Source of the DNA: an uncultured Planctomycetia bacterium
Lineage (GTDB): Bacteria > Omnitrophota > Gorgyraeia > 1-14-0-20-64-10
NCBI GenBank assembly: GCA_964373295.1
Contig: CAYJUA010000001.1
Span: forward strand, 4,608 to 68,607
Direction of reading: 5' to 3'
DNA length: 64,000 nucleotides
Below, piece after piece: positions 4,113-61,807 of the stretch. The position numbers and the translations under genes are program-made. Position 1 is the stretch's first letter. The number at the start of each line of letters is the position of its first letter. The notes beneath the pieces are model-generated. The model was not told the DNA's origin, ran no database searches, and worked only from the letters and a program-made list of their open reading frames with translations.

Positions 4113-4131
4113 CATCCATTGAACATGGATG
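4113..4131 (+). terminator. Short hairpin (CATCCAT-tgaac-ATGGATG) 5 nt after the UXS stop
   Basis: 7-bp inverted repeat with a 5-nt loop seen directly in the sequence. The stem is AT-rich and there is no T-tract, so terminator function is doubtful. It could equally be a protein-binding site. Confidence 0.2.
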
Positions 4132-4182
4132 CCTGCGTGTACCCAACCCCCTGTCCCATCGTGAGCTAGTGGGGCCTGCCTG

Positions 4183-37802: not shown

Positions 37803-39010
37803 GGCGAATTCACTTCGTCCTGGCGGCGAACAACTCCAGCAGCCAGACCCGGGTCACGGTCGAATACGCCAACGAGCTTGCCCGGCGAGGCTGCGAGGTC
37901 ACGGTCTCCGTGCCCCGCTTTGACTTCTTCGACTTCGTGCTCTGGCGGCTGCGCAGGGAGATCGCGCTCGGGCGAAGCCGCCCCCAGCTGTGGCGGCAGT
38001 GGCTCTCGTGGCTCATCCTGCCGGGTCTTCGCTCGCTGGTGTTCAGCCGGCGCTGGATCGGCCAGACGGACCACCGGCTGAACCCCCGGATCCGGGTGCG
38101 CCGGTACGCCTTCCGACCCGGCAGGGGAAACATGCCGGATGCCGACGTGATCCTCGCCTTCCAATGCTATCTCCTCCCCCATCTCATCGGCCTTCCACCC
38201 GGCAAGGGCAGGGTGATCGGGAGCATCCGGCTGGATTACCGGGCGGGAACCGCCGATCCTGTGGAGGAGGTCGCGCAGTGGCGGGAATTCTGCAACTCCT
38301 TCTACCAGCGGTTGAACGTGCCCCTCTTCGCCGTGAGCCGCAGGGTAAAGGAGTCGGCCGTGGAGATGGGGATCGCCGTGGGTGCGGTGATCCAGAACGG
38401 GATCAACATGTCAGAGTTCAGGGACGGCGGCCGCCGCGGCGGCGCGCGTCTTCTCCAGGTCACCCTGTTCACCCATGACCATCCCCAGAAGGGGCAGGAC
38501 TTCGGCTGCGCCGCCCTCCGCCGGATCCGGGAACGCGTCGGAACGCGGCCTGACATCCGCTTCTCCTCGGTGGGCGGAAGCGTCAAGCCCCAGCACCGGG
38601 ACCTCTTCGACCACCATTACGGTTACTTGACCGGCGCCGACTACGTCCGGATGTTCCAGACAACGGACATCTTCATCTTCCCCAGCCAGTATGAGGGGTT
38701 TCCCGCGGTGCCGCTGGAGGCGATGGCATGCGGGTGCGCGCTGGCGACCACGCAGGTCTCGGGCGTCGAGGAGTACGCCGTCCATGGGAAGAACAGCATG
38801 CTCTGCCTCCCCCACGAGGTGGACCGGATGGCGGATCACGTGCTCGCCCTGATCGCCGACGAACGCCTGCGGGATTCGCTCCGGGAAGAGGGGGTCCGAT
38901 CGGCGGCGGAGTATTCCTGGGAAAAGGCGGCGGACCGGCTGTTGGCCTTCCTCGAGGAGCAGGCGACCGCCGGCCGACGCGCCGAGGAGCCGGGGGTGCT
39001 TGTCTCGTGA
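37781..39010 (+). CDS. GT4-family (GT-B) glycosyltransferase
   Basis: C-terminal ...DIFIFPSQYEGFPAVPLEAMACGCALATTQVSGVEEYAVHGKNSML is the GT4 EX7E-type signature. The start is uncertain: GTG 37781 from the track, or TTG 37799. Confidence 0.75.
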   Translation: MGGETALRRIHFVLAANNSSSQTRVTVEYANELARRGCEVTVSVPRFDFFDFVLWRLRREIALGRSRPQLWRQWLSWLILPGLRSLVFSRRWIGQTDHRLNPRIRVRRYAFRPGRGNMPDADVILAFQCYLLPHLIGLPPGKGRVIGSIRLDYRAGTADPVEEVAQWREFCNSFYQRLNVPLFAVSRRVKESAVEMGIAVGAVIQNGINMSEFRDGGRRGGARLLQVTLFTHDHPQKGQDFGCAALRRIRERVGTRPDIRFSSVGGSVKPQHRDLFDHHYGYLTGADYVRMFQTTDIFIFPSQYEGFPAVPLEAMACGCALATTQVSGVEEYAVHGKNSMLCLPHEVDRMADHVLALIADERLRDSLREEGVRSAAEYSWEKAADRLLAFLEEQATAGRRAEEPGVLVS

Positions 39011-39807
39011 ACAACCTGCGCGCGAGGATGCGGGCGCGCGCCCCGGTGTTCGGAGCCTGGACCTCCCTGGGACACCCTTCGATCACCGAGATCTTCGCCC
39101 GGATGGGGGTGGACTTCGTCGGGATCGACATCGAGCACAGCACGATCAGCCAAGAGCAGGCGCAGCGGATCATCGCCGCGGCGCAGGCAGGCGGGACCCG
39201 CTGCCTGCCGCGTGTCGCCTCCCACAACGTGGAGCAGATCCGCAGGGTCCTGGACTCGGGGGCGGACGGCGTGATCGTCCCCAACGTCGGCTCCCTGGCC
39301 GAGGTCAAGCGGCTCGTCGAGTGGGCCAAGTACCCGCCGGAGGGCAAGCGCAGCTACGGGGTGGCCCGGGCGCAGGGCTACGGGTTCGACTTCGGCGAAT
39401 ACGTCACGGAATGGAACCATCGCTCGCCGCTCATCGTCCAGATCGAGTCGGCCGCCGGGGTCGAGCATGTCGAGGAGATCGTGGGCCACCCCGAGGTGGA
39501 TGGGGCGATGGTGGGGCCCTACGACATCTCCGGCTCGCTGGGCATCCCCGGCCAGCTCGAGCACCCGAAGGTGCGCGCCGCGTGCCAGCAGGTGATCGAG
39601 GCCTGCCGGCGGCTGGGCAAGGCCTGCGGCACGCAGCTTGTGGAGCCCAACTCGGGAAGGGTGGCCGATGCCCTGGGGGCCGGCTACACCTTCATCGTCC
39701 TCTCCTCGGATCTCTTCCTCCTCTGGAAATGGTGCGACGCGATGAGGCGCGTGGTGGAGGAGCATCGCCGCTCCGCGGCGGACCGGGTGGGCGGCCGTGA
39801 GCCCTGA
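39007..39807 (+). CDS. HpcH/HpaI-family class-II (pyruvate-dependent) aldolase
   Basis: ...VFGAWTSLGHPSITEIFARMGVDFVGIDIEHSTIS...CLPRVASHNVEQIRRVLDSGADGVIVPNV...KYPPEGKRSYG...IVQIES... is colinear with 2-keto-3-deoxy-sugar-acid aldolases of the HpcH family. Alternative start at ATG 39028. Confidence 0.8.
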   Translation: MNNLRARMRARAPVFGAWTSLGHPSITEIFARMGVDFVGIDIEHSTISQEQAQRIIAAAQAGGTRCLPRVASHNVEQIRRVLDSGADGVIVPNVGSLAEVKRLVEWAKYPPEGKRSYGVARAQGYGFDFGEYVTEWNHRSPLIVQIESAAGVEHVEEIVGHPEVDGAMVGPYDISGSLGIPGQLEHPKVRAACQQVIEACRRLGKACGTQLVEPNSGRVADALGAGYTFIVLSSDLFLLWKWCDAMRRVVEEHRRSAADRVGGREP

Positions 39808-40459
39808 GGCGGGAGTGTCCGCCCTGGAAGAGATCCTGGCGCGCGCGCGCGTCCTCTTCTTTGATTTCGATGGGACGCTGGTGGACTCCAACCGCATCAA
39901 ATGGGCGGCCTTCGAGAGCTGCTTCTCCGGTTTCCCGGAGCATCTGGAGGAGATCATGGCCTACTGCCGGGGCAACAGCCACACCACGCGGCTGGAGAAG
40001 TTCCGGTGGGTGTACGAGCGGATACTGGGCCTCCCCTATACCCGGCGGGTGGAGGAGCGCCTGAGCCGCCAGTTTGAGGGAGCCACCACGGAGCGGATCA
40101 TCCGGGCGCCGGAGATCCCCGGCGCGGAGGCGTTCCTGCGCGCGCAGGGGGTCTCCCGGACGCTGGGGCTGATCTCCTCCACCCCGCACGATATCCTCCT
40201 CCGAATACTCTCCGGCCGGGGCTGGAAGGGGTATTTCCAGGTCATTCGCGGAGCGCCGGTGGACAAGCGGGCCTTCCTTGAGGAATACCAGCGGGAGAGC
40301 GGGTTCCGGCCCGGAGATGGGATTTTCTTCGGCGACACGCCGGAAGACCGCGACGCCGCCGGGGGAGCCGGCTGGCCCTTCGTGGCGGTTCACCCTCTGC
40401 CGGCAACGGATGGAGGAATGGGGATCTCCGATTACCAGGAGGCCTGGGCGCGTGGCTGA
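39797..40459 (+). CDS. HAD-superfamily hydrolase (phosphatase, subfamily IA-like)
   Basis: Motif I VLFFDFDGTLVDS and a C-terminal motif around GIFFGDTPEDRDAA. Confidence 0.7.
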   Translation: MSPEAGVSALEEILARARVLFFDFDGTLVDSNRIKWAAFESCFSGFPEHLEEIMAYCRGNSHTTRLEKFRWVYERILGLPYTRRVEERLSRQFEGATTERIIRAPEIPGAEAFLRAQGVSRTLGLISSTPHDILLRILSGRGWKGYFQVIRGAPVDKRAFLEEYQRESGFRPGDGIFFGDTPEDRDAAGGAGWPFVAVHPLPATDGGMGISDYQEAWARG

Positions 40460-45444: not shown

Positions 45445-45581
45445 ATCTGCCGTTGGCCTACATGAACCCCGGCGCGGGGAGCCTCCTGCTCCAGCTGATC
45501 CTGATGGGGACGGCCGGCCTCTTCCTGGCGGGTAAGTCCCTCTGGCACTCCTTCCGATCGCTCTGTTCGCGCAAGAAGTAG
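45441..45581 (+). CDS. Small hydrophobic ORF (46 aa, one predicted TM helix); may instead be the displaced 5' end of the next gene
   Basis: GTGA overlap with the upstream stop. Peptide VNLPLAYMNPGAGSLLLQLILMGTAGLFLAGKSLWHSFRSLCSRKK. See the finding on a possible frameshift. Confidence 0.25.
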   Translation: MNLPLAYMNPGAGSLLLQLILMGTAGLFLAGKSLWHSFRSLCSRKK

Positions 45582-45733
45582 ATTCTCTGGCAGGGGAGCT
45601 GGACGAGCTGCGCCGCTTCCACCGGAATGGGAGCTGGCTGCGGCAGGCGCTGGTCTTCTACTCGGAGACGGCCGGTTACTACCCCTGCTTCCGGCCGGTC
45701 CTCCGCGCCCTCCAGCAGCGCTCGCGGGAGGAG

Positions 45734-46711
45734 ATGGGCTACATCACCTCCGACCCCGCCGACCCGCTGCGGTCCTCCGCGCCGGAAGGCCTGCGGGTGT
45801 TCTGGTTCCGGCGCCTCCTCCCCTTCGTGATCCAGTTCCTCCGCGCGCCAGCCCTGGTTATGACGACGACCGACCTCCACCGCTTCCACCTCCGCCGCTC
45901 CGTCTTCCCCGTGAACCACGTCTACCTGTTCCACGCGCTGGTGAGCACCCACATGATCTATCGCTTCGGCGCCTTCGACCATTACGACACGATCCTCTGC
46001 GGCGGCCCCCACCACGTGCGGGAGATCCGCCGGGCCGAGGAGCTTTACCGGCTCCGGCCCAAGCGCCTGCTCGAGGCAGGCTACCCCCACCTGGACGAAC
46101 TGGCGGATGCCCACCGGCGCCGGCTCGGGCGCCCGCGGGAGGGAAAGGGGACCGTTCTCATCGCGCCCTCCTGGGGGGCGGCGAACATCCTGGAGTCCTG
46201 CGAACCCCGCCTGACCCAGGCCCTTTCCGGGGCGGGGTACCGGGTGATCGTCCGACCGCATCCGGAGTTCTGCAGGAGAAACCCTGATCGGATCGCCCAA
46301 CTTTCAAAAATTCTCGCTTCGAAGGGGGGGGTCATGGACATGGACTACGGCTCCGAGGAATCGCTCCACGCCGCCGACCTGCTGATCACCGATTGGTCCG
46401 GGATCGCGATGGAATACGCCTTCGCCACCGAGAGGCCGGTGCTGTTCCTGGACGTCCTGCGGAAAGTCAATAACCCCAGGTACGAGGAGCTGGGGATCCC
46501 TTCCCTGGAGGCCGAGATCCGGGAAAGGATCGGGCAGGTGGTTTCTCCTGTGGAGGTCGAGCGGATCCCCGGCCGTGCCGAACAGATGCTGCGGGAGGGC
46601 CCGGACTACCGGCCGCGCATCGTTGAGGAGCGCGCCCGACGCCTCTTCAACGCAGGATCCTCCGCCGCGGCCTGCGCCGACTTCCTCCTTGAACTCCGCC
46701 GGCCCGTCTGA
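45734..46711 (+). CDS. TagB/TagF-family (CDP-alcohol phosphotransferase-type, GT-B) protein. The annotated start is probably too far downstream
   Basis: ...KGTVLIAPSWGAANI... and ...ADLLITDWSGIAMEYAFATERPVLFLD... match the TagF catalytic domain. The frame stays open upstream to 45536 and there encodes ALVFYSETAGYYPCFRPVL, a conserved TagF N-terminal motif, but without an ATG, GTG or TTG. Confidence 0.65.
   Translation: MGYITSDPADPLRSSAPEGLRVFWFRRLLPFVIQFLRAPALVMTTTDLHRFHLRRSVFPVNHVYLFHALVSTHMIYRFGAFDHYDTILCGGPHHVREIRRAEELYRLRPKRLLEAGYPHLDELADAHRRRLGRPREGKGTVLIAPSWGAANILESCEPRLTQALSGAGYRVIVRPHPEFCRRNPDRIAQLSKILASKGGVMDMDYGSEESLHAADLLITDWSGIAMEYAFATERPVLFLDVLRKVNNPRYEELGIPSLEAEIRERIGQVVSPVEVERIPGRAEQMLREGPDYRPRIVEERARRLFNAGSSAAACADFLLELRRPV
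46324..46331 (+). repeat. Poly-G tract (G8) inside the TagF-like CDS
   Basis: ...cgaagGGGGGGGGtcatgg... encodes SKGGV. Coordinates are +/-1. Confidence 0.45.
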
Positions 46712-46754
46712 TAGCATGGCTGTCAACTGATAGCTGACAGGTGAACCCCTGCCC
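46709..46754 (+). promoter_or_regulatory. Candidate operator: direct repeat TGATAGC (x2) interleaved with the inverted repeat CTGTCA-n9-TGACAG, immediately upstream of the XRE-HTH nucleotidyltransferase gene
   Basis: tgatagcatggCTGTCAactgatagcTGACAGgtgaa read directly from the sequence. AGGTGA Shine-Dalgarno about 12 nt before GTG 46755. Confidence 0.3.
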
Positions 46755-47924
46755 GTGAAAAGCTCCGCCAAAAAAACCAACGGATCCCGGCCCACGAACG
46801 GCTCCCGGAAGCCCTTCGGGAGTGTGGTCCGCTCCCTCCGCAAAAAGGCCAACTTGAGCCTCCGCGAGATGGCCCGCCGGACGGGGATCACCGCCTCGTA
46901 CCTCAGCGACATCGAGGCCCTCCACCGGCGGCCGCCTTCCAAGGAGGTCATCCAGCGGTTGGCCGCCGAACTGCGCGTCGCCCCGGAGGGGCTGTTCGAC
47001 CTGGCGGGGCTGGACGGCGACCGGATCCCCCCGGACGTCCCCGACATCATCAAATGGAGGCCGGAGTCGGTCTCCCTCCTGCGGGCCATCCGGCACCACC
47101 AATCCTCCTCGCAGCAGATTCGGGACCTCACCCGCCGGGTGGGCGGGGCGGAGGTGCGGGCCCTGATCCTGGCGGCGGGGATGGGCACGCGGCTGAAAGA
47201 ATACACGCAGGACCTCCCCAAGTGCATGGCCGTGGTGCTCAACGGCAAACCGCTCATCGAGATCCAGATGGATACCCTCCGAGCCTGCGGGATCAGCGAC
47301 ATCTCGATCGTCCGGGGGTACAGAGCCGAGAAGATGCGGTTTCCGGAGGTGCGCTGCTACCACAACCCCGACTATGCGCGCACCAACATCCTCGCCTCCC
47401 TATTCAGCGCCGAGGAGGCGCTCGATGGTGACGTGATCGTCTCCTATTCCGACATCTGGTACGAGACCGCCGTGGTGAAGCGGCTCCTCCGGTGCGAGAA
47501 GGACATCGCCATCGGCGTGGACATCGACTGGAAGGAGTATTACCTGGGCCGGAAGGACCACCCCATCGAGGAGGCCGAGAACGTCATCCTCGACAGCGAC
47601 AACCGCGTGGTGAAGATCGGCAAGATCGCCGCTGAGAAGGCGGAGGTCCACGGCGAGTTCATCGGGATGATGAAGCTCACCCGCCGGGGCTGCGAGCTGC
47701 TCCGGCGCCACTACCACCGGGCGAAGGCGGCGCACGAGGGCAAGCCGTTCCAGCGGGCCGCCCGCTTCGAGGAGGCGTACCTGACCGACCTCCTCCAGGA
47801 GATGGCGGACCTCGGGGTGCCGATCCACGGCGAGATCATCGGCTCCGGCTGGAAGGAGATCGACACCGTGGAGGATCTCCAGAAGGCGATCGCTGTTTTC
47901 CATCAGAAGGAGACGCTTTCATGA
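46755..47924 (+). CDS. XRE-family HTH domain fused to a sugar/alcohol-phosphate nucleotidyltransferase (LicC/cytidylyltransferase-like)
   Basis: GTG start. HTH SLREMARRTGITASYLSDIE. Nucleotidyltransferase signature RALILAAGMGTRLKEYTQDLPKCMAVVLNGKPLIE. C-terminal ...HGEIIGSGWKEIDTVEDL. An A7 run sits at codons 6-7. Confidence 0.75.
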   Translation: MKSSAKKTNGSRPTNGSRKPFGSVVRSLRKKANLSLREMARRTGITASYLSDIEALHRRPPSKEVIQRLAAELRVAPEGLFDLAGLDGDRIPPDVPDIIKWRPESVSLLRAIRHHQSSSQQIRDLTRRVGGAEVRALILAAGMGTRLKEYTQDLPKCMAVVLNGKPLIEIQMDTLRACGISDISIVRGYRAEKMRFPEVRCYHNPDYARTNILASLFSAEEALDGDVIVSYSDIWYETAVVKRLLRCEKDIAIGVDIDWKEYYLGRKDHPIEEAENVILDSDNRVVKIGKIAAEKAEVHGEFIGMMKLTRRGCELLRRHYHRAKAAHEGKPFQRAARFEEAYLTDLLQEMADLGVPIHGEIIGSGWKEIDTVEDLQKAIAVFHQKETLS

Positions 47925-48640
47925 TGCAGTCCCAGAATGTTGTCCAGCAGGCCCTCTACAAGAGTCACGGAACCCTGATCCATGCCTGGCGCAACGAAGT
48001 CAAGCACACCTTCGAGATGGTTTCCCGGGACACCGGCATCCCGGTCGAGCGCCTCCGCTCCCTCGAGGCGGGAATGGAGAAGCCCTCCTGGGAGGAGCTG
48101 GAGCTCCTGGCCAGGCAATTCACCGTGAGCGTCCGGGACCTCCTCCCCTTTGAGAACGACCTCGACCGCGGCATGAAGTTCCTGAGGAACCGGGACGCCC
48201 GCGCCTTTGACCAAAAGAGAGCGGGGCAGCTGCAGTACACCTATTGGGAGAGGGTGATGACCTCCGCGATCCCGGGGATCAAGCCGGTCGAACTGCTCCT
48301 CCATCTGAACCGGAGGGAGGAGGTCGTCATGAACCGCGGGCATTTCTTCCATCAGTACACGCAGGTCCTCCACGGCGGGCCTGTGGCCTATCTGTGGGAG
48401 TGGAAGGGCGCCACGCATGAGGATGTCTTCGAGGAAGGGGACTCCTGGCTGATCCCCGGTTTCGTCCCCCACGGCTTCTACTCTCCCGATGCGCAGCGGC
48501 CCGGGCAGATCCTGGCGATCACCTTCGGCCAAAACCTCACCGGGGACGCGCGCCAGGAGCTGGCCCTCCTCGGACGGGAGAACGCCTCTCGGATCGTCTC
48601 CGATGACCAGGACTACTACCCCCAGGAGGGGCGGAAGTGA
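47921..48640 (+). CDS. XRE-like HTH domain fused to a single metal-binding cupin domain (HppE-like architecture; could also be a cupin-sensor regulator)
   Basis: ATGA overlap. HTH TFEMVSRDTGIPVERLRSLEAG. Cupin motifs NRGHFFHQYTQVLHG and GDSWLIPGFVPHGF with conserved His residues. Confidence 0.7.
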   Translation: MMQSQNVVQQALYKSHGTLIHAWRNEVKHTFEMVSRDTGIPVERLRSLEAGMEKPSWEELELLARQFTVSVRDLLPFENDLDRGMKFLRNRDARAFDQKRAGQLQYTYWERVMTSAIPGIKPVELLLHLNRREEVVMNRGHFFHQYTQVLHGGPVAYLWEWKGATHEDVFEEGDSWLIPGFVPHGFYSPDAQRPGQILAITFGQNLTGDARQELALLGRENASRIVSDDQDYYPQEGRK

Positions 48641-48644
48641 GTCG

Positions 48645-50342
48645 ATGACCGAGCGGGCGTCTTCCTTAAGAAAGCGCCTCCGATCCGGGAAGATCGTCCG
48701 GGCCATGGGAGCCCACAATGGGCTGGGGGCCCGACTCATCGAGCGGACCGGCTTCGACGCCGTCTGGGCCAGTGGCTTGGAGATCTCCACCGCCTACGGC
48801 GTGCCCGATGCCAACATCCTCACCATGACGGAAAATCTCGATGCCGCCCGGGCGATCCACGAGGCGACGGCGCTGCCGATCATCTGCGACTGCGACACCG
48901 GCTACGGCAACGCTTCCAACGTCCGCCACATGGTCCGCCGCTACGAGGCGGCGGGGCTGGCGGCCATCGTCATCGAGGACAAGATCTTCCCCAAGGTCAA
49001 CAGCTTCATCCCGGACGGACAGGAGCTGGCCCCCGTGGGCGAGTTCATGGGGCGAATCCGGGCGGCCAAGGCCACCCAACGCAACCCGGATTTCATGGTC
49101 TTCGCGCGGGTGGAAGCGCTGATTGCCGGCTGGGGCCTCGAGGAGGCGATGCGCCGCGCCAATGCCTACGTGGATGCCGGCGCCGACGGGATCGTGATTC
49201 ACTCGAAGGCTTCTTCTCCCGAAGAGGTGCTTGCCTTCGCCCGGAGCTGGAAGCGGCCCGTGCCCCTCGTGGCGATCCCGACCACCTACTACCAAATCAC
49301 GGCCGAGGAGCTGCAGCGGGCAGGCTTCTCCATGGTGATCTACGCCAACCATGGCCTCCGGGCGGCGATCCGCGCGATGGAATCCACCTTCCGCGAGATC
49401 CAGCGGACCGGGACGACCCTGGGAGTGGAGGGAAAGATCGCCACCCTGAAAGAGGTCTTCGAGCTCCAGGGGATGAAGGACCTCAAGGAGGACGAAAAGC
49501 GCTTCTCCGGCGAAGAGCCGATCCGGGTGGTGATCCCCGCGGCCCGCGACCACCGGAGGCAGACGGACCTCTGGGAGCTGCTCCCTGACAAGCCTCTCTG
49601 CATGCTGGAGATGGGAGGGAAGACCCTCCTCGACCGGCAGATGGAGCTTCTCCGCTCGGTGGGTGCCGCCGACATCCACGTGGTCGGCGGCTATCTCCAC
49701 GAGCGGATCAAGGCGGAGGGGGCCCACGTCCTCTTCAACCCGGACTACGCCCGGTACCACTGCGCCCAGTCGATCCTCTTCGCCAAGGAGCACCTCCAGG
49801 GAAGGACCCTGCTGGTCTATTCCGATGTCCTGTTCGACCGACAGATCCTGGAGCGCCTCGTGGAGAGCCCCCACCCCATCACCCTCGTCATCGACCGGGC
49901 CTACCAGACCCTTCCCCTGCGCGAGAAGTCGCTGGACCTCGTTGCGGTGGATGCGGTCGGCGAGGCGGCGGGGCGTCGGCTGCGCATGAACCTGTTCAAG
50001 CCGATCCGGCAGATCGGGAAAGGCGTCGTCCAGCGGCCCACGCACGAGTTCATCGGAGTCGCTTTCCTCCGCGACAACGGAGCCGAGGAGCTCAAGCGCG
50101 CCTGGGAGGAGGCGCTGGCCGAGTTCCGCGGCAAGCCGTTCCATGAAGCGCGCAGCGTGGAGGAGGCTGACCTCACGGACCTGCTCCAGCACATGATCCG
50201 CCGGGGCACCCCCGTCTTCGGGATGGAGATCGAGCACGGCTGGTCCGAGATCCATTCGCGGGACGACTACGATCGGGTGCGGCAGCATTTTCAGAAGCCG
50301 GCCATGGCGCTGGCCGGCGGGAGAAGCCTTTCGCCGCGCTGA
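48645..50342 (+). CDS. Phosphoenolpyruvate phosphomutase (Ppm) fused to a C-terminal nucleotidyltransferase-like domain with a degenerate active-site loop
   Basis: Ppm N-terminus LRKRLRSGKIVRAMGAHNGLGARLIERTGFDAVWASGLE and signature AIVIEDKIFPKVNSF. The C-terminal about 250 aa is a paralog of the 46755 nucleotidyltransferase domain (LTDLLQHMIRRGTPVFGMEIEHGWSEI vs LTDLLQEMADLGVPIHGEIIGSGWKEI), but the glycine-rich loop is VVIPAARDHRRQ instead of LAAGxGTRL. Confidence 0.85.
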   Translation: MTERASSLRKRLRSGKIVRAMGAHNGLGARLIERTGFDAVWASGLEISTAYGVPDANILTMTENLDAARAIHEATALPIICDCDTGYGNASNVRHMVRRYEAAGLAAIVIEDKIFPKVNSFIPDGQELAPVGEFMGRIRAAKATQRNPDFMVFARVEALIAGWGLEEAMRRANAYVDAGADGIVIHSKASSPEEVLAFARSWKRPVPLVAIPTTYYQITAEELQRAGFSMVIYANHGLRAAIRAMESTFREIQRTGTTLGVEGKIATLKEVFELQGMKDLKEDEKRFSGEEPIRVVIPAARDHRRQTDLWELLPDKPLCMLEMGGKTLLDRQMELLRSVGAADIHVVGGYLHERIKAEGAHVLFNPDYARYHCAQSILFAKEHLQGRTLLVYSDVLFDRQILERLVESPHPITLVIDRAYQTLPLREKSLDLVAVDAVGEAAGRRLRMNLFKPIRQIGKGVVQRPTHEFIGVAFLRDNGAEELKRAWEEALAEFRGKPFHEARSVEEADLTDLLQHMIRRGTPVFGMEIEHGWSEIHSRDDYDRVRQHFQKPAMALAGGRSLSPR

Positions 50343-50350
50343 AAGCAGCC

Positions 50351-51484
50351 ATGACCTTGCCGGCCCCATACTGGAACCCGACCCGGCGGCTGATCGCCGA
50401 GGGAGCGCTCGCCCGGATCGGCGAGGCGGCCGGAGAATACCGGCCCAAGAAGATCCTCCTGGTCCTGGGCCGTTCCTCTTTCCGCGGGTCCGCCCATGAC
50501 CGCGCCCTGCGGGACGCCCTCACGGGTTTCCAGGTGGAGGAGTCCAATCCGGTGCAGCACAGCCCCAGCATCGCCTTCATCCAGGAAATGTGGAACGCCC
50601 TGAAGGGGAGGGGCATCGATCTCGTGGTCGGGGTGGGAGGGGGGAGCGTGATCGACTGCGCGAAAGCGATCCGGATCCTTCTCACGCAGGGAGAGGGCAC
50701 CTTGGAGGATTACGCCGAGAAGCGCCGTGCGTTCCGGAAGCCGGGGCTGCCGTTCATCGCCGTGCCCACCACCGCCGGAACCGGCAGCGAGGTGACGCCC
50801 TACTCCTCCCTGCAGACCGCGGCGCACCAGAAGATCAGTCTGACGCACCCCTGGCTTTTCCCGGAGCTGGCGCTCATCGACCCCCTGCTCACCCACTCGA
50901 TGCCCCGCTACGTCACCGCCTGCACGGCGTTGGACGCCCTGGCGCAGGCGATCGAGTCCTTCTGGTCCGTCCACCACACGCCGTTCTCCGAGACGCATTC
51001 GATCCGCGCCATCACCTTGATCCTGGAGAACCTGCCCGTGGTCCTGCGGGAGCCGGGGAACGCCCCTGCCAGGTTCGCCATGTCGGTGGCGAGCTGCGAG
51101 GCAGGGCTGGCGATCACGCAGACCCGCACCACGGCGGTCCACGCCGTTTCCTATCCCCTGACCACCTTCTTCGACATCCCCCACGGCCACGCCTGCGCCC
51201 TCACGCTCCCCTCCTTCATCCGGTACAACGGCACGGCGCTGGAGCCCGTCCGGGGAGTCGTCCTCTGGAGGGCGCTGGGGTGCAGCTCCTGGGAGGAGGC
51301 GGCGCGGCGGGTCGAGCACCTGATGGACGAAGCGGGCGTCGAGCGTTCCCTGCGCAAGATGGGACTGGACGAGAAAGGGATCCAGACGGTGATCGACCAC
51401 GGGTTCCGCTCGGACCGCGTGGTGAACAACCCCCGGGAAGTCACTCAGGAGGCGCTGCGTGAAATCCTCGAAAAGATCTACTGA
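50351..51484 (+). CDS. Iron-containing (group III) alcohol dehydrogenase, phosphonoacetaldehyde-reductase (PhpC/FomC)-like by context
   Basis: ...DLVVGVGGGSVIDCAKAI...PFIAVPTTAGTGSEVTPYSS... and His-rich metal site ...AVHAVSYPLTTFFDIPHGHACAL... are typical of the Fe-ADH family. Confidence 0.8.
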   Translation: MTLPAPYWNPTRRLIAEGALARIGEAAGEYRPKKILLVLGRSSFRGSAHDRALRDALTGFQVEESNPVQHSPSIAFIQEMWNALKGRGIDLVVGVGGGSVIDCAKAIRILLTQGEGTLEDYAEKRRAFRKPGLPFIAVPTTAGTGSEVTPYSSLQTAAHQKISLTHPWLFPELALIDPLLTHSMPRYVTACTALDALAQAIESFWSVHHTPFSETHSIRAITLILENLPVVLREPGNAPARFAMSVASCEAGLAITQTRTTAVHAVSYPLTTFFDIPHGHACALTLPSFIRYNGTALEPVRGVVLWRALGCSSWEEAARRVEHLMDEAGVERSLRKMGLDEKGIQTVIDHGFRSDRVVNNPREVTQEALREILEKIY

Positions 51485-53123
51485 CGCGGCGGGCATGGCC
51501 CCCCCGGACCTCTTCTGGGCGGCGTGGGGCGCCACCACGCTGCTCGTCCAGATCCCGCTGAGCGGGATGATCCTGCAGGACCCCCAATCCCTCCTGCTCG
51601 GCGTCTGGAACCTGAAAACCCTGGCGCTGTTTTGCGCGGTGACCTTCCTGGGCCTCCCCCTTGCGGTGGGGGCCGCCTGGGCCGCGGCGGCCAGGGTCTC
51701 CACGCGCTGGGCCTGCCTCCTCCTGGCGGTTGGGATCGCCTATGTCCTGACGATGCAGATCAATTTCCATTACCTCCAGGTCCGCTTCTTCGATATGGCT
51801 TGGCGCCGCATGGCGGAAGTGGTGCTGTTCGGTGTCGGCGCCGCAGCCTGCTGGGCGGGACGGAGAGGGCTCACCCGGCTTCTCAAGGTCTGCGCCGGGC
51901 TGAGCGCCGCGGTCTGCCTCCTTTTCGCCTTCCAGGCCTGGCCCTCCTCCTCGGGAAAGGCCTCCCCGGCGGATGAGGCTCCTCAGACGCAGGATTCCCC
52001 ATCGGCGGAATTCCCGGTTTTCTTCCTGACCTTCGAGAAGCTCTGCGCCTCGTACGTGGCGGATGAGCAGGGCCGCGTCGTCGCCGACCGGCTGCCCAAC
52101 CTGGCGAAGTTCGCCTCGGAGGCCGACGACTATCCGGAAACCCACGCCAACTGCACGGCCACGGTTTACTCTCTGAAGACCCTCTATTCCGGCAGAGTGA
52201 CCACGCGCGCGAAGGACTGGGCCCGCCGCCCGAACCTGAGGGACATCGTGGGCGCGAACCGCAAGGTCGTGATGCAGCTGGACCTTCTGACAAACTACTG
52301 CGACCCCGAGCGCAACGTCTGCCTGAGGGCGATCGGATTGGAAGGGATCCGCGGGGTGGACCTCATCGCAGGCTGGTACAAAACGTACGTGCTCACGATC
52401 CTGCCGGATCCGCTGGAGCTGCGCCTGACCCTGCGGGGTTGGAACTTCAACCCCTGGACGGACCTGTGGATCCGCGAGGAGGAGGGGTTGGCTCCGGGAG
52501 AGGAAGTACACCACCGGGTAGGCCGCCGGCAATTCCAGCGCCTCCGCGAGGAAATCCAGCGGCAGGGGAATGCCCCGAACCTCTACCTCATGCACAATTT
52601 CATCTCCGACACGCCCGAGGTGAAGGCTTCCGGCCTGTCTGGAAAGCACTGGGAACGGTACGCGGAGGAGCTGGACGGGGCGCGCCGCAACCTGGCCGTC
52701 TTCGATGAGGAACTGGGGAAGTTCTTCGATTTCCTCAAGGAGAAGGGCCTTTACGACCGGTCGCTGATCGTGGTCACCACCGACACCGGATACGACTACG
52801 ATTCGCGGCGGGTCCTGGGCGACGCGGAGCTGCCCCCTTCGCGCGACCTCACGCGGATCTTCTTCGCGCTCAAGCGCCCCGGCCAGAAAGAGGGAAGGGT
52901 CTTCCGCTCGTCCCTGCGGCATGTGGACGTTCTGCCGACCCTGCTCGCCCACTTGGGCATCGATCCCAAACCCTACGGGTTCGAGGGGGTCCCGGTCACG
53001 GACCCTTCCGAGCAGGCCACGCTGCGGGAGCGCCCGCTGGATTTCATGCTGACCTCCGAGCAGGCCGGCGTGCTGCGCTATCGGATGGACCAGCCGCAGG
53101 GCGGCATGCGGAGGGTCCGGTAG
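51459..53123 (+). CDS. Membrane-anchored alkaline-phosphatase-superfamily (sulfatase/LtaS/EptA-like) transferase
   Basis: About 5 N-terminal TM segments. The soluble domain has ...[13 protein letters not shown]..., ...[17 protein letters not shown]... and ...[16 protein letters not shown]..., which are characteristic of sulfatase-fold phospho-headgroup transferases. The track start overlaps the ADH by 26 nt. An in-frame ATG at 51495 is an alternative. Confidence 0.6.
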
Positions 53124-53127
53124 CGCG

Positions 53128-54177
53128 ATGAACATCCTGGTCACCGGGAGCAGCGGCCTGATCGGCTCGGAAGCGGTGGAGTACTTCGACAAGCGCGGGC
53201 ACACCGTTCACGGCGTTGACAACAACATGCGGATGGAGTTCTTCGGGCCGGGAGGGGACACCCGCTGGAACCTGCGGCGGCTGCGGGCCTCCTGCAGGCG
53301 TTTTCAGCACCACGAGCTGGACATCCGCGACCGGGCGGGGGTCCTGCGGCTCTTCGGGGAGGTCCTCATCGATTGGGTGATCCACTGCGCAGCCCAGCCG
53401 TCCCACGATCTGGCCAAGCAGCGGCCCCTGGACGACTTCGACGTCAACGCGGTCGGGACCATCAACCTGTTGGAAGCGACCCGCCGGCACGCGCCGGAAG
53501 CGGTCTTCTGCCTGCTCAGCACGAACAAGGTCTACGGGGACGCACCGAACAAGCTCCCCCTCAAGGAGGAGCCGACCCGCTGGGACTACGCCGACCCCAA
53601 ACAGGCTCACGGCGTGGACGAGCGTTGCCGGCTGGACTTCTCCACCCACAGCGTCTTCGGCGCCAGCAAGGCGGCCGCCGACCTGATGACCCAGGAGTAC
53701 GCCCGCACGTTCGGGATGAAGACCGGCGTTTTCCGGGGGGGATGCCTGACCGGGCCCCAGCATTCGGGCGTGGAGCTGCATGGGTTCCTTTCGTACCTCG
53801 TCAAGGTCGTGAAGAGCGGGACTCCCTACCGGATCTATGGCTACAAGGGCAAGCAGGTCAGGGACCAGATCCACAGCTTCGATGTGATCCGCGCCCTCGA
53901 GGAGTTCGCCGACAATCCCCGCCCGGGCGAGGTCTACAACATCGGAGGGGGGCGGGGCAACAGCCTTTCCATCCTGGAGGCCATCGACACGGCGGAGCGT
54001 CTGACCGGCAGGAAGTTCGAATACGAGTACGTGGAGACGCCAAGGGTCGGCGACCACATCTGCTACATCACCGATTTCCGGAAGCTGCAGTCCCACTATC
54101 CCAACTGGGAGATCACGAGAAGCCTGCTCTCGATTTGGGAGGAGATGATGGAGGCCGTCCCGTGCGCGTCACGCTGA
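53128..54177 (+). CDS. NAD-dependent epimerase/dehydratase, CDP-paratose-2-epimerase-like
   Basis: [52 protein letters not shown]... is the pattern of the RfbE/CDP-tyvelose epimerase subgroup. Confidence 0.7.
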
Positions 54178-55703
54178 TCCACCCACCGCAGTTCGTCGCC
54201 TACGGGAACCAGGTCTCCACCATCGCGATGCCCCCCCTGGGGCTCGCTTACCTGGCCAGCAGCCTGAGGGAAGCGGGCCACCCGGTGTCGCTGGTGGACG
54301 GCTTCGGCGATGGGCTGGACCGGCAGACGCCGTTCGGCCACGGGTCGGTCTACCTCTGGGGGCTTCCGGACGAGGAGATCGTTTCCCGGATCCCGCGAGA
54401 CACCGAGGTGATCGGGGTCGGCCAGATGTTCTCCTCGGGCTGGCTTTCCGTCCGGATCCTCCTGAAGAAGATCAAAGAGGCTTTTCCCTCGGTGCCCCTC
54501 CTCCTGGGCGGAGAGCACGCCTCCGGCCTGCCGGCGATGTGCTTCTCGCAGAGCCCCATCGACCTGCTGGTCCAGGGGGAAGGGGAGGAGACCCTCGTGG
54601 AGCTGGTGGGGAAGCTGGCTTCGGGAGATCCGGTTGAGGCGGTCCCCGGGGTCGGCTACCGCAAGGACGGACGGATGATGCTGAACCCCAGGCGGAACCG
54701 GATTCGCAACGTGAACGACATACCCTGGCCGGCCTGGGATCTCGTAGACCTGGAGGGCTACATCCGGGTGAACTGCCCCCACGGCATCGCGCGCGGGCGC
54801 TTCATCCCCATGCTGGCGACCCGGGGATGCCCGTTTCAGTGCACCTTCTGCACCAGCCCTCAGATGTGGACCCAGCTTTGGATCGCGCGCGACGTCAAAG
54901 GCGTGGTCGACGAGATCGAGCATTACGTCCGCGAGTACCGGATCCAGGACATCCAGTTCGAGGACCTCACCGCGATCGTGCGGAGGGACTGGATCGTCGA
55001 GTTCTGTCGGGAGATCCTGAGAAGAGGGCTCGAGATCACTTTCCAGCTTCCCTCCGGGACCCGCAGCGAAGCGGTGGACAAGGAGGTGGCGGCCCTGATG
55101 AAGCAGGCCGGCTGCCCGGAGTTCTCCTTCGCCCCGGAGTCCGGGGACGAGGAGACCCTGAAGATCATCAAGAAGCAGGTCAACCTGAAGAAGATGTTTG
55201 CCTCTGCGCGCGACGCGATCCGAGCCGGGATCGGCGTCTCCTGCTTCTTCATCATTGGATTTCCCCACGAGCGCTGGAAGCACATCCTCAACACCTACGG
55301 GGCCCTGGTTCGGTGCGCCGTCATGGGGATCAAGACGGTCAGCGTCAACGTCTTCTCGCCGGAGCCCTCCACGCGCCTGTTCAACGAGCTGCTGGAGCAG
55401 AAGAAGATCCAGCTGGACGATCCCTTCCTCTGGTCGCTGTTTGATTTCCCCGCGTTCGGCCGGAAGAAGACGTCGTTCAACGACCGGTTCAGCGACGTCC
55501 AGATCACGGCGATTTCGGTCGGCGGGATGTTCCTTTTCTACGCGATCCGCTACCTCCTGCGCCCCCACCTGCTCATCGGGGTCCTCCGGGAGACGTTTGG
55601 GGAGACCCCCCACAACGACAACCGGCTGGGGAAATACCTCCGCGCGATGCGGAAGGAACTCATCCGCTCGCTCAAGTTCAAGTTCCGGCGGGCGGTGGCG
55701 TAA
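54162..55703 (+). CDS. B12-binding-domain radical SAM enzyme (class B; Fom3/GenK-type C-methyltransferase candidate)
   Basis: GTG start overlapping the epimerase by 16 nt. B12-like N-terminal domain. Canonical cluster motif [17 protein letters not shown]. About 514 aa. Confidence 0.8.
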
Positions 55704-55704
55704 C

Positions 55705-56427
55705 ATGTATCCCCGGGAACGGCTCGAATACGAGCGGCAGGTTTGGAAGCGGAAACCCTCGCTGAGGATCCTGAAGGCGGACTATTATGCCCAAGTCCGC
55801 GACCACCTCCCTCCCGGGGGAAGGAAGGTGGTCGAGCTGGGCTCCGGCTGCGGGGGCCTGAAGGAGTCGATCCCCGGGGTGATCCAGACCGACATCTTTC
55901 CTACCCCCTGGGTGGATGTGGTGACCGCAGCTGAGCGGCTGCCGTTCGCCGACGGGTCGGTGGACGGGCTGATCGGACTCGATGTGCTGCACCACCTGGA
56001 GGAGCCGCTCCGGTTCTTCCGAGAAGCGGCGCGGGTGCTGCAGGCCGGCGGACGGCTGATCCTGATCGACCCCTACGTGAGCCTGGGCTCCTGGATCCCG
56101 TGGCATTACCTCCACCACGAGGCCTGCTTGATGCGGGAACCCTACAGCCTGGCCGGCCGGTTCGAGCGCGAGAACAACGCCCGGGCCACGCTGTGGTTTG
56201 ACGGCAACCGCGCCCGCACCGAAGCCCTGATCCGGCCCTTGCGCCTCCAGACGATGAAAACCTTCGACCTGTTTTATTACCCCCTCACCGGCGGGTTCCG
56301 GCCGTGGTCCTTGATCCCTCCCGGGTTCGCCCGCGGGCTGCTGCGGGCGGACCGCTGGCTCGGGAACTGGCTCGGCCGGTGGCTCGGCTATCGGATGCTT
56401 CTGGTCTTTGAAAAGGCTCCGGTATGA
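55705..56427 (+). CDS. Class-I SAM-dependent methyltransferase
   Basis: Motif I KVVELGSGCGGL and motif ...VDGLIGLDVLHHLEEP...GGRLILIDP. Confidence 0.7.
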   Translation: MYPRERLEYERQVWKRKPSLRILKADYYAQVRDHLPPGGRKVVELGSGCGGLKESIPGVIQTDIFPTPWVDVVTAAERLPFADGSVDGLIGLDVLHHLEEPLRFFREAARVLQAGGRLILIDPYVSLGSWIPWHYLHHEACLMREPYSLAGRFERENNARATLWFDGNRARTEALIRPLRLQTMKTFDLFYYPLTGGFRPWSLIPPGFARGLLRADRWLGNWLGRWLGYRMLLVFEKAPV

Positions 56428-57941
56428 GCCGACAGGCCCACCACGAGCGGATCCGGCGGCATTTCGACTCCATCGCGCCCGCTTACCTCCGCTGGAAGGG
56501 TGTGAACGCCTACTACAACAACCAGCTGATCCGCTGGTGCCGCTCCCGGGTCCCGCCGGGGCGGAGGATCCTGGACCTCGGGTGCGGGCGGGGAGACACC
56601 CTCGCGGCGCTCGAGCCCCGGGAAGGGACCGGCATCGACCTCAGCGGAGAGATGATCCGCCGAGCCGCCGTCGACCACCCGGCCTTCGATTTCGAGGAGA
56701 CCCGGATCGAGGAGTTCGAGCCGCGGAGGGAATACGACGTGGTCCTGTGCGTCAACACGCTCGAGTACACGTGGGACATCAGCGCCGTGCTGGACAAGAT
56801 CCACGCCTGTCTGCGCGACAACGGCCGGGTCCTCATCGCCACCGGGAACCCCCTCTGGTCCCCCATCTTCCACCTGGCCAGCTCCTGGGGGCTCCGGATG
56901 CCGGAATGCACGCGCCTGTTCATCACCAACAAGGACCTGGAGAACATGCTGGCCCTGCACGGGTTCGACGTGGTGGACTCCCGGATGGCGCTGCCCCTCC
57001 CGAAATTCATCCCCCTCCTGACCCCTCTTGTGAACTGGCTCCTCCCCCGGATCCCGCTCCTGAACCTGCTCTGCTCGACCCAGCTGATCACCGCCCGGAA
57101 GATCCCGCCGGTCCGAAAGGACTACTCGGTGTCGATCATCGTCCCCTGCCACAACGAGGCGGGCAACGTTGAGCGCTGTGTGCGGGAGACGAGGAGGCTG
57201 GGGCTGCGGACCGAGCTGATCTTCGTGGACGACGGATCCACCGATGGGACCGCGCAGGCGGTCCGGCCGGAGATGAACCCCGGTCTGGAGGTGAAGGTCG
57301 TCCGCTACACGCCCAACCGCGGCAAGGGCCGCGCCGTCCAGGCAGGCATCGAAGCGGCCACAGGGGACATCGTCATGATCGTGGACGCGGATCTCACCAC
57401 CCATCCCGCGGAGCTGGGCCCCCTCTACGAGGCCTTCGCATCGGGCCACGCCGAATTCGTCAACTGCACCCGCTTCGTCTATCCTCGGGAGCGCAACTCC
57501 ATGCGGATGGCCAACTACATCGGCAACAAGCTGTTCGCCATCTGGGTGAGCCTCGTGATGGAGGCGAGGGTGAGCGACACCCTCTGCGGGACGAAGGCGA
57601 TGTTCCGGTGGGACTACGACCACATGGCGATGGGCCGGGACCGGTGGGGGGATTACGACCTGCTGTTCGGCGCGGCCCAGCAGCGCCTGGTGATCCGCGA
57701 ACTGCCGGTCCACTACCAGGGGCGGCGGGCGGGCCAATCCAAGATGAAGACCCTCCGGCACACGCTCAACCTGTTCCGAATGTGCTGGCATGGGTTCTGG
57801 CAGGTGAAGACGCTCCGTCCGCTGCCACCGGCCCGCCGCCGGAAGCCCTTGCCCGCGCGCGGACCGGGGCAGGATCTCGCGGGCGCGCCGCGCGAAGCCG
57901 CGCCCTCAGCGCCCATCCTGGAAGGCGGGGAAGAGGGATGA
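56424..57941 (+). CDS. Bifunctional SAM-dependent methyltransferase (N-terminal) / family-2 glycosyltransferase (C-terminal)
   Basis: ATGA overlap. MTase motif RILDLGCGRGDTL. GT2 part SVSIIVPCHNEAGNVERCV...LIFVDDGSTDGT...IVMIVDADL. Confidence 0.75.
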   Translation: MSRQAHHERIRRHFDSIAPAYLRWKGVNAYYNNQLIRWCRSRVPPGRRILDLGCGRGDTLAALEPREGTGIDLSGEMIRRAAVDHPAFDFEETRIEEFEPRREYDVVLCVNTLEYTWDISAVLDKIHACLRDNGRVLIATGNPLWSPIFHLASSWGLRMPECTRLFITNKDLENMLALHGFDVVDSRMALPLPKFIPLLTPLVNWLLPRIPLLNLLCSTQLITARKIPPVRKDYSVSIIVPCHNEAGNVERCVRETRRLGLRTELIFVDDGSTDGTAQAVRPEMNPGLEVKVVRYTPNRGKGRAVQAGIEAATGDIVMIVDADLTTHPAELGPLYEAFASGHAEFVNCTRFVYPRERNSMRMANYIGNKLFAIWVSLVMEARVSDTLCGTKAMFRWDYDHMAMGRDRWGDYDLLFGAAQQRLVIRELPVHYQGRRAGQSKMKTLRHTLNLFRMCWHGFWQVKTLRPLPPARRRKPLPARGPGQDLAGAPREAAPSAPILEGGEEG

Positions 57942-58759
57942 GCAGCCTCGCGGAAGGCGGTTTTGTTCAGAGTGCCCTCCTCCGGACGTACCGCGCAGCC
58001 GTTGACACGGGCCTGCTGAAGAGCCGGGTCGGGGTGCCTCTCTACGAATGGGGCTATGGATGGTACAAGGCGCGTGTGGAGGCCCCGTGGCTGCGCCTCC
58101 TGCGCCCCTTCGTCCGGCCGGGGAGTACGGCGGTGGACGTGGGCGCGAACATCGGGTTTTTCAGCCAGCCCTTCGCGCGCTGGGTGGGCTCGGAGGGGCG
58201 CGTCGTCGCCATCGAGCCGGAGCCGGCCAATTTCGAACGGCTCCGCCGCCGGATGCGCCGCGGGATGGAGGAGGGCCGGGTTTTTCTTCACCGGGCGGCG
58301 GCCGCCGAGCGGGGGGGAGAAACCTTCCTGACGCTCAACCCTTACCACCCTGGAGACCACCGCCTCGGAGATTCGGGCATCCGGGTGCGCGCCGTGACGC
58401 TGGACGCCCTGCTGGATCAGACCCCGTCGCCCCCTGTTTCCTTGATCAAGATCGACGTCCAGGGCGCGGAGACGAGGGTCATCGCCGGGGCTCGGCACAT
58501 TCTTGCGGAATCCCGCCCGGCGCTGTGCGTGGAGGTGGACGACTCGGCGCTCCGGCAGCAGGGAAGCAGCTGCTCGGAATTGGCGCGGATCCTGCAGGCC
58601 CTGGGCTATCGGGCCCGCAGGCTGCGTCCCGGATCCCTCTCGGATCCGCTGGAGCCCGAAGAGGCGATCGCTCCGATGTCGCGCAGCGGGACCTACGCGG
58701 ATTTCCTGTTCCTCCGGGACGGGGATCCCGGGAGGGGCGGGGAGGGGCGTGCCGAATGA
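57938..58759 (+). CDS. FkbM-family methyltransferase
   Basis: ...GSTAVDVGANIGFFSQPFA...VVAIEPEPANFERL...LIKIDVQGAETRVIAGA... is the pattern of FkbM-type O-methyltransferases. Confidence 0.7.
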   Translation: MSSLAEGGFVQSALLRTYRAAVDTGLLKSRVGVPLYEWGYGWYKARVEAPWLRLLRPFVRPGSTAVDVGANIGFFSQPFARWVGSEGRVVAIEPEPANFERLRRRMRRGMEEGRVFLHRAAAAERGGETFLTLNPYHPGDHRLGDSGIRVRAVTLDALLDQTPSPPVSLIKIDVQGAETRVIAGARHILAESRPALCVEVDDSALRQQGSSCSELARILQALGYRARRLRPGSLSDPLEPEEAIAPMSRSGTYADFLFLRDGDPGRGGEGRAE

Positions 58760-61795: not shown

Positions 61796-61807
61796 GGGGA
61801 TTCCAGC

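Follow-up and report, generated by a model that had tools for sequence, protein, structure and literature searches.

A predicted single-repeat HEPD/MPnS-like cupin oxygenase encoded in a phosphonate operon of an uncultured Omnitrophota bacterium

The cupin gene and its two-domain protein

A stretch of 64,000 nucleotides (nt) from an uncultured bacterium of the Omnitrophota (contig CAYJUA010000001.1, positions 4,608 to 68,607; hereafter, the window) encodes, within a phosphonate operon, a protein of 239 amino acids (aa) that combines a helix-turn-helix (HTH)-like domain with a single cupin barrel. The original prediction left two alternatives for this protein, an oxygenase resembling the epoxidase HppE or an XRE-cupin regulator of the module. 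By sequence, fold and residue evidence, an enzyme is the correct choice between the two, and we assign to the following function a probability of roughly 60%: an Fe(II)- and O2-dependent oxygenase that would cleave the C-C bond of 2-hydroxyethylphosphonate (2-HEP), with methylphosphonate as the most likely product, which would then be activated with cytidine monophosphate (CMP) and attached to a glycan.

The open reading frame (ORF) at 47921-48640 starts with ATG, stops with TGA and has a GC content of 0.65/0.38/0.87 at the three codon positions, the pattern of real genes in this window of 67% GC. The 239-aa product with an HTH-like string and cupin motifs that had been described is thus genuine: TFEMVSRDTGIPVERLRSLEAG corresponds to residues 30-51, G-H-F-F-H to residues 140-144 and P-G-F-V-P-H-G to residues 179-185. 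Pfam detects both domains only weakly (HTH_3, 19.4 bits against a cut-off of 23; Cupin_2, 13.4 against 27.2), and a scan of the protein against NCBIfam returned no relevant model. An AlphaFold2 (AF2) model built with 33 homologues (mean predicted local distance difference test score, pLDDT, 80.5) consists of five N-terminal helices (residues 14-27, 31-38, 42-49, 57-67 and 71-74) followed by a nine-strand beta-barrel, so that the claimed HppE-like architecture, an HTH-like alpha domain plus one cupin, is borne out. The features of the gene are as follows:

47921..48640, + strand: single-repeat HEPD/MPnS-like cupin oxygenase (predicted), 239 aa; phmmer against the PDB, AF2 model and Foldseek, family alignment
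47960..48145, + strand: N-terminal HTH-like alpha domain, residues 14-75, carrying the invariant K28; AF2 model, Pfam
48194..48529, + strand: cupin barrel, residues 92-203, with R100, Y108, N138, H141, Q145, Y157, I178 and H184; AF2 model, mapping to MPnS
48341..48355, + strand: codons of H141 to Q145 (H-F-F-H-Q), including two of the three predicted iron ligands; MPnS alignment
48470-48472, + strand: codon of H184, the third predicted iron ligand; MPnS alignment
48530..48637, + strand: C-terminal tail, residues 204-239, not present in HppE; HMMER alignment to MPnS 257-454

The C-terminal tail resembles the linker between the two repeats of MPnS and also the MPnS C-terminal tail (GRENxxR...WF/YY...P). 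Within it, no family member departs from Y232 or Y233, and Y232 aligns with W449 of MPnS in the HMMER alignment, a tryptophan that probably packs at the MPnS active site.

Membership in the HppE/HEPD/MPnS superfamily

Among all PDB sequences, phmmer matched the cupin protein most strongly to MPnS (6b9s, 3e-43) and the Streptomyces albus HEPD (SaHEPD; 6b9r, 2e-35), and far more weakly to Pseudomonas HppE Psf4 (6e-12), Streptomyces HppE (2e-4) and PhpD (E 0.065); XRE regulators appeared at 0.01 or worse and through their HTH portion only. HppE, proposed as the closest counterpart, is therefore not the nearest relative. The two halves of the 457-aa MPnS were matched separately, at 76 and 73 bits, and because the protein aligns to each of them, it is equivalent to a single repeat of what is normally a two-repeat enzyme. 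The score against repeat 1 of SaHEPD (84 bits) is slightly above that against MPnS repeat 1.

The structural comparison leads to the same assignment. The top 40 PDB matches of the AF2 model in Foldseek are exclusively MPnS, HppE, SaHEPD, Psf4 or PhpD (6e-16 to 1e-9), with a template modelling (TM) score of 0.80-0.82 for HppE when normalised to its length, and the first regulator in the list, 1y9q, comes at rank 41 with a TM score of 0.34; a best structural match to cupin-sensor regulators, which would have spoken against an enzyme, did not occur. The protein has the hallmarks of the superfamily, namely, an HTH-like helical domain ahead of a cupin barrel, a His-x3-(Glu/Gln) motif with a distal His, the phosphonate-binding Lys, Arg, Tyr and Asn, and a gene adjacent to those of the 2-HEP pathway (here PepM and Fe-ADH). 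Judged by these comparisons of sequence and predicted fold, it is a single-repeat member of the HppE/HEPD/MPnS superfamily of cupin oxygenases.

Predicted active site and specificity markers

We mapped the functional residues with HMMER alignments and a MAFFT alignment of 210 repeat segments from an exhaustive homologue search, taking the marker residues from Lockwood et al. 2022 (Suppl. Table S2) and a 2025 ISME J paper. The counterparts in the cupin protein and MPnS are K28/K28, R100/R102, Y108/Y110 and N138/N145 for substrate binding, H141/H148, Q145/Q152 and H184/H190 for iron, and Y157/F162 and I178/I184 for specificity. Nearly every first repeat, the catalytic one, has the K-R-Y-N-H...H pattern, which second repeats keep only in degenerate form. 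All nine markers are invariant in 33 diverse family members except for position 157, which is Tyr in 28 and Phe in 5 of them.

The predicted iron triad is thus 2-His-1-Gln (H141, Q145, H184), as in MPnS and S. albus HEPD, and not the 2-His-1-Glu of HppE, against which the original prediction proposed to check it. Its reading of the first cupin motif is right for H141, which aligns with a ligand, and wrong for H144, which aligns with the non-ligand H151 of MPnS; the ligand is Q145 instead, and the third metal ligand, whose loss would have counted against an enzyme, is in place. The substrate-binding Lys and Tyr singled out for comparison with the superfamily are conserved (K28 and Y108), along with R100 and N138.

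Only the columns at MPnS positions 162 and 184 separate MPnS from HEPD cleanly, and position 151 leans weakly to MPnS, with His, as at H144, in 37 of 42 MPnS-type sequences versus 3 of 17 class II HEPDs. The residue criteria for MPnS are H148/Q152/F162/I-V184/H190, with I/Y162 and E/G184 for HEPD (Lockwood et al. 2022, Suppl. Table S2), and Phe and Ile are described as "required for methylphosphonate synthesis" (2025 ISME J paper). At these two positions, the cupin protein has Tyr157, at the place of Tyr163 of S. albus HEPD, and Ile178, as in MPnS, a hybrid that is found in no other representative cluster. Of the features of a strict MPnS (EC 1.13.11.73), it has the 2-His-1-Gln triad and Ile/Val184 and lacks Phe162 and the two-repeat chain of ~450 aa. 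One family member (P0095), encoded in the same type of operon (locus L004), has Phe and so matches the published residue criteria for MPnS.

The other groups differ at these columns. The class II HEPD set has Gly at position 184 in 17 of 17 sequences, where the cupin protein, with Gln and Tyr as in that set, has Ile. Class I HEPDs, of the PhpD type, have no Gln152 and instead a Glu ligand six residues before the distal His, at the position of E176 in SvHEPD, in contrast to Ile178 and Gln145 here; the PhpD-type representatives have A/G/S, G and A at three marker columns. In the HppE-type sequences, Glu occupies the Gln145 column, with Met or Val and Leu, Ile or Val at the two neighbouring markers.

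Family and evolution

More than 160 clusters at 90% identity match the cupin protein at 64-85% identity, all of ~232-250 aa and, where named in databases, labelled "XRE family transcriptional regulator" or hypothetical. Across the 33 diverse members, 65 columns are invariant. In the alpha domain, these include H21, W23, R24 and K28 of helix 1, and only R44, L45 and E49 are conserved in the would-be recognition helix (residues 42-49); for these sequences, this is the opposite of the pattern expected for a DNA-binding protein.

An exhaustive HMMER scan of 1.84 billion representatives yielded only 234 relatives, among which the family forms one 50%-identity cluster. Next to it comes P0121, a 447-aa two-repeat protein with 42% identity (loci L019 and L020), likewise annotated as an XRE regulator, and the remaining relatives are mostly two-repeat proteins of 440-470 aa, with a few half-size lineages (P0123, P0129, P0168) and a group of HppE size. 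A rough neighbour-joining (NJ) distance tree rooted with HppE places the family and P0121 on a deep branch of their own, separate from the clade of MPnS and class II HEPD, from the PhpD clade and from the other half-size clade. The second repeat of P0121, in which both His ligands are lost, scores 104 and 91 bits against the family, 75 against its own first repeat and 69 or less against the second repeats of other enzymes. These similarities suggest an independent tandem duplication in the P0121 lineage, such that the half-size form would not be a truncated one. No half-size MPnS or HEPD, and no characterised member of this family, turned up in the literature that was searched, although specialist work elsewhere may exist.

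The operon and neighbouring genes

In the window, the order is cytidylyltransferase, cupin, PepM-cytidylyltransferase, Fe-ADH, and the cupin gene is translationally coupled:

45734..46711, + strand: homologue of TagF-like CDP-glycerol glycerophosphotransferases; Pfam Glyphos_transf 2e-13
46720..46740, no strand: inverted repeat CTGTCA-N9-TGACAG, 15 nt before the start of the next gene; inverted-repeat scan
46755..47924, + strand: XRE HTH fused to a LicC/PntC-like nucleotidyltransferase (HTH-NT), probably a cytidylyltransferase; Pfam HTH_3 4e-12, NTP_transf_3 9e-14
48645..50342, + strand: phosphoenolpyruvate mutase fused to a C-terminal nucleotidyltransferase domain (PepM-NT); TIGR02320 2e-100, PDB 5unc 8e-109
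50351..51484, + strand: iron-containing alcohol dehydrogenase (Fe-ADH), phosphonoacetaldehyde reductase-like; Pfam Fe-ADH, TIGR03405 Phn_Fe-ADH
51459..53123, + strand: 554-aa protein, N-terminal half hydrophobic, sulfatase/LtaS-like domain at the C-terminus; weak Pfam Sulfatase, NCBIfam LtaS 7e-9
~54165-55703: cobalamin-binding radical S-adenosylmethionine protein (B12-rSAM), inside the block 53128-60048

The HTH-NT gene, whose product matches LicC (1jyk, 3e-15) and PntC (6pd1) in the PDB, overlaps the cupin gene by 4 nt at its stop (ATGA), and the ATG of PepM-NT lies 4 nt past the cupin stop. PepM-NT contains EDKIFPKVNS, an instance of the EDKxxxxxNS motif. For the Fe-ADH, the best NCBIfam match is TIGR03405 Phn_Fe-ADH (2e-72), under the equivalog cut-off. 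The TagF-like protein is a candidate transferase for the CMP-activated phosphonate, and the LtaS/sulfatase-like protein, with an N-terminal half that by eye is apparently multi-pass membrane, is a candidate phosphonyl transferase to the glycan; many glycosyl- and methyltransferase genes surround the operon. In the region 45500-51600, a consensus promoter scan gave no site reaching the threshold, and the one terminator-like site on the + strand (50460-50472) is no more than chance would give. Neither tblastn nor a dedicated profile detected a phosphonopyruvate decarboxylase (Ppd) in the 64-kb window.

The homologous loci that were compared (designated by L numbers) come from groundwater and other metagenomes, and from metagenome-assembled genomes of Omnitrophota (4), Planctomycetia (2), Actinomycetota, Gammaproteobacteria and Nitrospinia. 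The nucleotidyltransferase (NT) gene is located directly upstream of the cupin gene in every locus with a recovered upstream flank, and PepM-NT comes next after the cupin in eight loci. In L001, L004, L012 and L014, PepM is followed by Ppd and Fe-ADH, with Ppd between the other two; Ppd was not found in the fetched parts of L007, L017, L008, L015 and L016, although PepM and Fe-ADH lie side by side there. The conserved core hence consists of NT, cupin, PepM-NT, Ppd in some loci, and Fe-ADH. The two closest loci (L007 and L017) keep the order TagF-like, HTH-NT, cupin, PepM-NT, ADH, sulfatase-like, and a faint match to the TagF family is present also in L018. The genes for the half-size P0129 and the two-repeat P0121 also adjoin NT and TagF-like or phosphodiesterase/sulfatase-like genes, and nucleotidyltransferase, sulfatase and glycosyltransferase genes have also been reported around MPnS genes. 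As far as gene content tells, these loci encode the canonical 2-HEP route combined with CMP-type activation.

In four loci (L001, 14730-16012; L008; L014; L015), although not in the window, genes for a NUDIX hydrolase and a cytidylate kinase come immediately after the phosphonate genes, an arrangement reminiscent of FomD-type hydrolysis of CMP-phosphonates and CMP recycling.

Some of the NTs upstream of the cupin carry a canonical XRE HTH and others do not. An inverted repeat is present 15-60 nt before the NT start in all 6 HTH-bearing loci (the window, L001, L007, L008, L013 and L017), and the 6 HTH-less loci (L004, L010-L012, L015 and L016) gave none near the NT start in the same scan. Outside the window, the repeats read GTTCGC...GCGAAC, and most come after hexamers that by eye resemble -35 and -10 elements. 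Because the repeat tracks the presence of the HTH, the HTH-NT fusion may combine catalysis with autoregulation of the operon, 46720-46740 being a candidate operator.

All the neighbours named in the original prediction, PepM-NT, Fe-ADH, B12-rSAM and a further nucleotidyltransferase, are present. The claim that they mirror the neighbourhood of HppE thus holds for the genes themselves and fails, at the family level, for a fosfomycin-like logic, because the B12-rSAM is not conserved. The block that contains it (53128-60048), which also encodes an NAD epimerase/dehydratase, methyltransferases and a fusion of a methyltransferase with a family 2 glycosyltransferase, is missing from L007 and L017, which indicates that the B12-rSAM does not belong to the conserved gene set; nor did the retrieved portions of the other homologous loci show one. 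The best NCBIfam matches of the B12-rSAM, BchE and the Sden_1168 family of putative P-methyltransferases, are both far below cut-off, and the same scan gave no Fom3-specific match.

The window (38728-40459 and 60048-63507) and L017 (~3300-5500 and 13200-15630) have in common genes for a class II aldolase resembling GarL/HpaI (unconfirmed in L017), a HAD phosphatase, two short-chain dehydrogenases/reductases (one in L017), a KdsB-like cytidylyltransferase and a D-2-hydroxyacid dehydrogenase that falls in one Pfam family with the phosphonopyruvate reductase VlpB. By their content, these genes resemble a route to a CMP-activated 3-deoxy-ulosonic acid. The first ~245 codons of the 746-aa ORF at 58048-60288 are rich in Arg, Gly and Pro and non-coding in look; the true start is probably near 58783 (MKQAQGILLPVL...), and the product would be a hydrophobic, by eye apparently polytopic membrane protein, for which no Pfam or NCBIfam match was found. 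No gene is assigned to 57941-58780.

Proposed function and alternatives

In the mechanism that we propose, Fe(II) would be held by His141, Gln145 and His184, and 2-HEP would chelate the iron in a bidentate manner, with its hydroxyl and one oxygen of the phosphonate, whose remaining oxygens would be held by Lys28, Arg100, Tyr108 and Asn138. A homo-oligomer would reproduce the pseudo-dimer of the two-repeat enzymes, with Lys28 probably contributed by the partner subunit and Y232 and the tail supplied in trans. Activation of O2 would lead to cleavage of the C1-C2 bond of 2-HEP, most likely yielding methylphosphonate and CO2; the adjacent LicC-like nucleotidyltransferase would activate the product, probably as a CMP ester, and the TagF-like and LtaS/sulfatase-like transferases would attach it to the glycan built by the surrounding genes. 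The oligomeric state, the provision of K28 and Y232 in trans and the order of the downstream steps are what we infer by analogy with the characterised enzymes. Free 2-HEP, by the same analogy, is quite probably the substrate. A preference for methylphosphonate over hydroxymethylphosphonate as the product is slight; it is favoured because Ile178 is invariant, five orthologues have Phe and hence the full signature, and H144 matches the MPnS-typical His151.

Several observations weigh against this proposal. Tyr157 is the state of class II HEPD, so the published rules place the protein in neither MPnS nor HEPD. Without Ppd in the window, the 2-HEP route is incomplete here unless that enzyme is encoded elsewhere. 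Many of the host lineages, such as groundwater Omnitrophota, are thought to be anaerobic, which is awkward for an O2-dependent enzyme. The two separate nucleotidyltransferases, together with the NUDIX hydrolase and cytidylate kinase of related loci, leave room for a CMP-linked intermediate. The confidence of the structural model is moderate overall, with pLDDT below 65 in the C-terminal tail.

That the cupin protein is an enzyme rather than a regulator appears to us close to certain. A phosphonate-sensing repressor of the module would fit the database label of the family, the weak matches to HTH_3, HTH_31 and HTH_26 and the fact that XRE-cupin repressors are a common family, but it is hardly credible given that the HTH matches fall below the Pfam cut-offs (for HTH_31, 18.6 against 27), that it is helix 1 and not the recognition helix that is invariant, that all catalytic residues of the oxygenases are invariant in the cupin family, and that the best regulator structure is so remote. 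Moreover, the gene has no upstream intergenic region: its start overlaps the upstream stop, leaving no room for an operator. The upstream palindromes, previously suggested as its targets, belong to the preceding gene, and the HTH-NT protein, with its canonical XRE HTH, is a better candidate regulator than the cupin. A regulatory identity was thus rejected on Pfam scores, conservation pattern, fold matches and operon structure. A pathway of the HppE type, in which the B12-rSAM would methylate 2-HEP or CMP-2-HEP to 2-hydroxypropylphosphonate for the cupin to epoxidise or otherwise oxidise, is very improbable too. It would account for the single repeat, for the TM scores against HppE, for the B12-rSAM gene in the window and for the fusion of PepM to a nucleotidyltransferase, as in Fom1; against it stand the Glu found at the Gln145 column of every HppE-type sequence, the differing neighbouring markers, a similarity at least 30 orders of magnitude weaker than that to MPnS, and the B12-rSAM, which is absent from the closest loci and has no NCBIfam match near cut-off. 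At the family level, this pathway was rejected on the replacement of Glu by Gln and the lack of conservation of the B12-rSAM.

The other two alternatives concern the substrate and the product of an oxygenase that cleaves 2-HEP. An HEPD activity would convert 2-HEP to hydroxymethylphosphonate and formate, the former then being activated and attached; Tyr157, which 28 of the 33 family members have, the slightly higher score against SaHEPD repeat 1 than against MPnS repeat 1 and the position of the family outside the MPnS clade in the NJ tree are all in line with it. It is a serious alternative, which we consider the less likely one in view of the invariant Ile178, which neither HEPD class has, of the five orthologues that combine Phe157 and the complete MPnS signature with the same operon, and of H144, which leans to the MPnS type. 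Alternatively, the nucleotidyltransferase fused to PepM could produce CMP-2-HEP, as in Fom1, and the cupin could turn it directly into CMP-methylphosphonate. The cupin gene is always directly downstream of, and translationally coupled to, a nucleotidyltransferase gene, PepM carries a second nucleotidyltransferase domain, the NUDIX hydrolase and cytidylate kinase of related loci point to CMP-ester chemistry, and, speculatively, the active site of a single-repeat enzyme might be more open. In the structures of HppE, HEPD and MPnS, the free phosphonate is bound by a Lys, an Arg, a Tyr and an Asn. Because all four are conserved here, the glycan-bound or CMP-bound substrate that had been envisaged is not indicated, and there is no sequence hint of an added nucleotide pocket, which makes the CMP-linked route improbable.

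Implications for methylphosphonate surveys

Methylphosphonate is the accepted precursor of methane in oxygenated water, and, to our knowledge, MPnS is used as the sole genetic marker of its production. Studies of freshwater and groundwater have found plentiful carbon-phosphorus lyase and little or no mpnS: none was found in the Flathead Lake study, and the groundwater study (2025 ISME J paper) detected MPnS in three samples only, its authors raising a possible geological source. We tentatively propose, at somewhat less than even odds, that the family is a functional single-repeat methylphosphonate synthase missed by surveys, a hidden source of methylphosphonate and hence of oxic methane, and that it represents an unduplicated ancestral form. 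Were this the case, surveys based on KEGG K18049, on full-length references or on the strict Phe/Ile rule could not see it, the source taxa would include groundwater and freshwater Omnitrophota, Planctomycetota, Verrucomicrobiota and Nitrospinia, and the half-size form would be the origin of the two-repeat enzymes, apparently more than once. The family could then explain part of the mpnS gap, which would alter survey practice. For enzymology, the family offers a naturally occurring combination (Tyr/Ile) of the two residues that reportedly set whether methylphosphonate or hydroxymethylphosphonate is formed, and a minimal, presumably homo-oligomeric scaffold linking HppE to the two-repeat enzymes. 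As it stands, more than 160 protein clusters are under the wrong functional label.

Comparison with known systems

The XRE-cupin repressors, such as PsdR and PauR of Pseudomonas (PDB 1Y9Q), share with the cupin protein the order of HTH and cupin and a similar size, which explains the database annotation of the family. They differ from it in having a canonical HTH_3, in lacking the set of phosphonate- and iron-binding residues and in their low structural similarity (TM 0.34), and they are usually transcribed alone, beside the target operon.

HppE, Fom4 and Psf4 (PDB 1ZZ8, 5U55) consist, like the cupin protein, of one repeat with an HTH-like alpha domain and one cupin; HppE works as a homo-oligomer, with the Lys coming from the alpha domain. 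We know of no other characterised single-repeat members of the superfamily. Unlike the cupin protein, these enzymes have a 2-His-1-Glu triad, a length of 190-198 aa and no C-terminal tail, and their sequence similarity to it is much lower; the Streptomyces pathway of HppE depends on Fom3 and FomD, neither of which is a conserved partner at the loci described here.

With the HEPDs, the cupin protein shares the fold and the substrate-binding residues (class I, PhpD, PDB 3G7D; class II, S. albus, PDB 6B9R) and, with class II specifically, the Gln ligand and the Tyr at position 162. It differs in having Ile rather than the class II Gly, in lacking the class I Glu ligand and in its single repeat, and HEPDs are encoded in antibiotic clusters whereas this gene is found in a cell-surface glycan context.

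MPnS of Nitrosopumilus maritimus (PDB 6B9S/6B9T) is the best match by both sequence and fold, with the 2-His-1-Gln triad and the Ile behind Gln, the same set of Lys, Arg, Tyr and Asn, an aromatic residue at the C-terminus (Y232, corresponding to W449) and a neighbourhood of PepM, Fe-ADH, nucleotidyltransferase, sulfatase-like and glycosyltransferase genes. The cupin protein is set apart by its half length, ~26-30% identity, separate deep branch and Tyr at position 162, and by its hosts, which are uncultured groundwater and freshwater bacteria rather than the marine Thaumarchaeota and SAR11. With one repeat in place of the two of MPnS, every subunit of the cupin protein would be catalytic.

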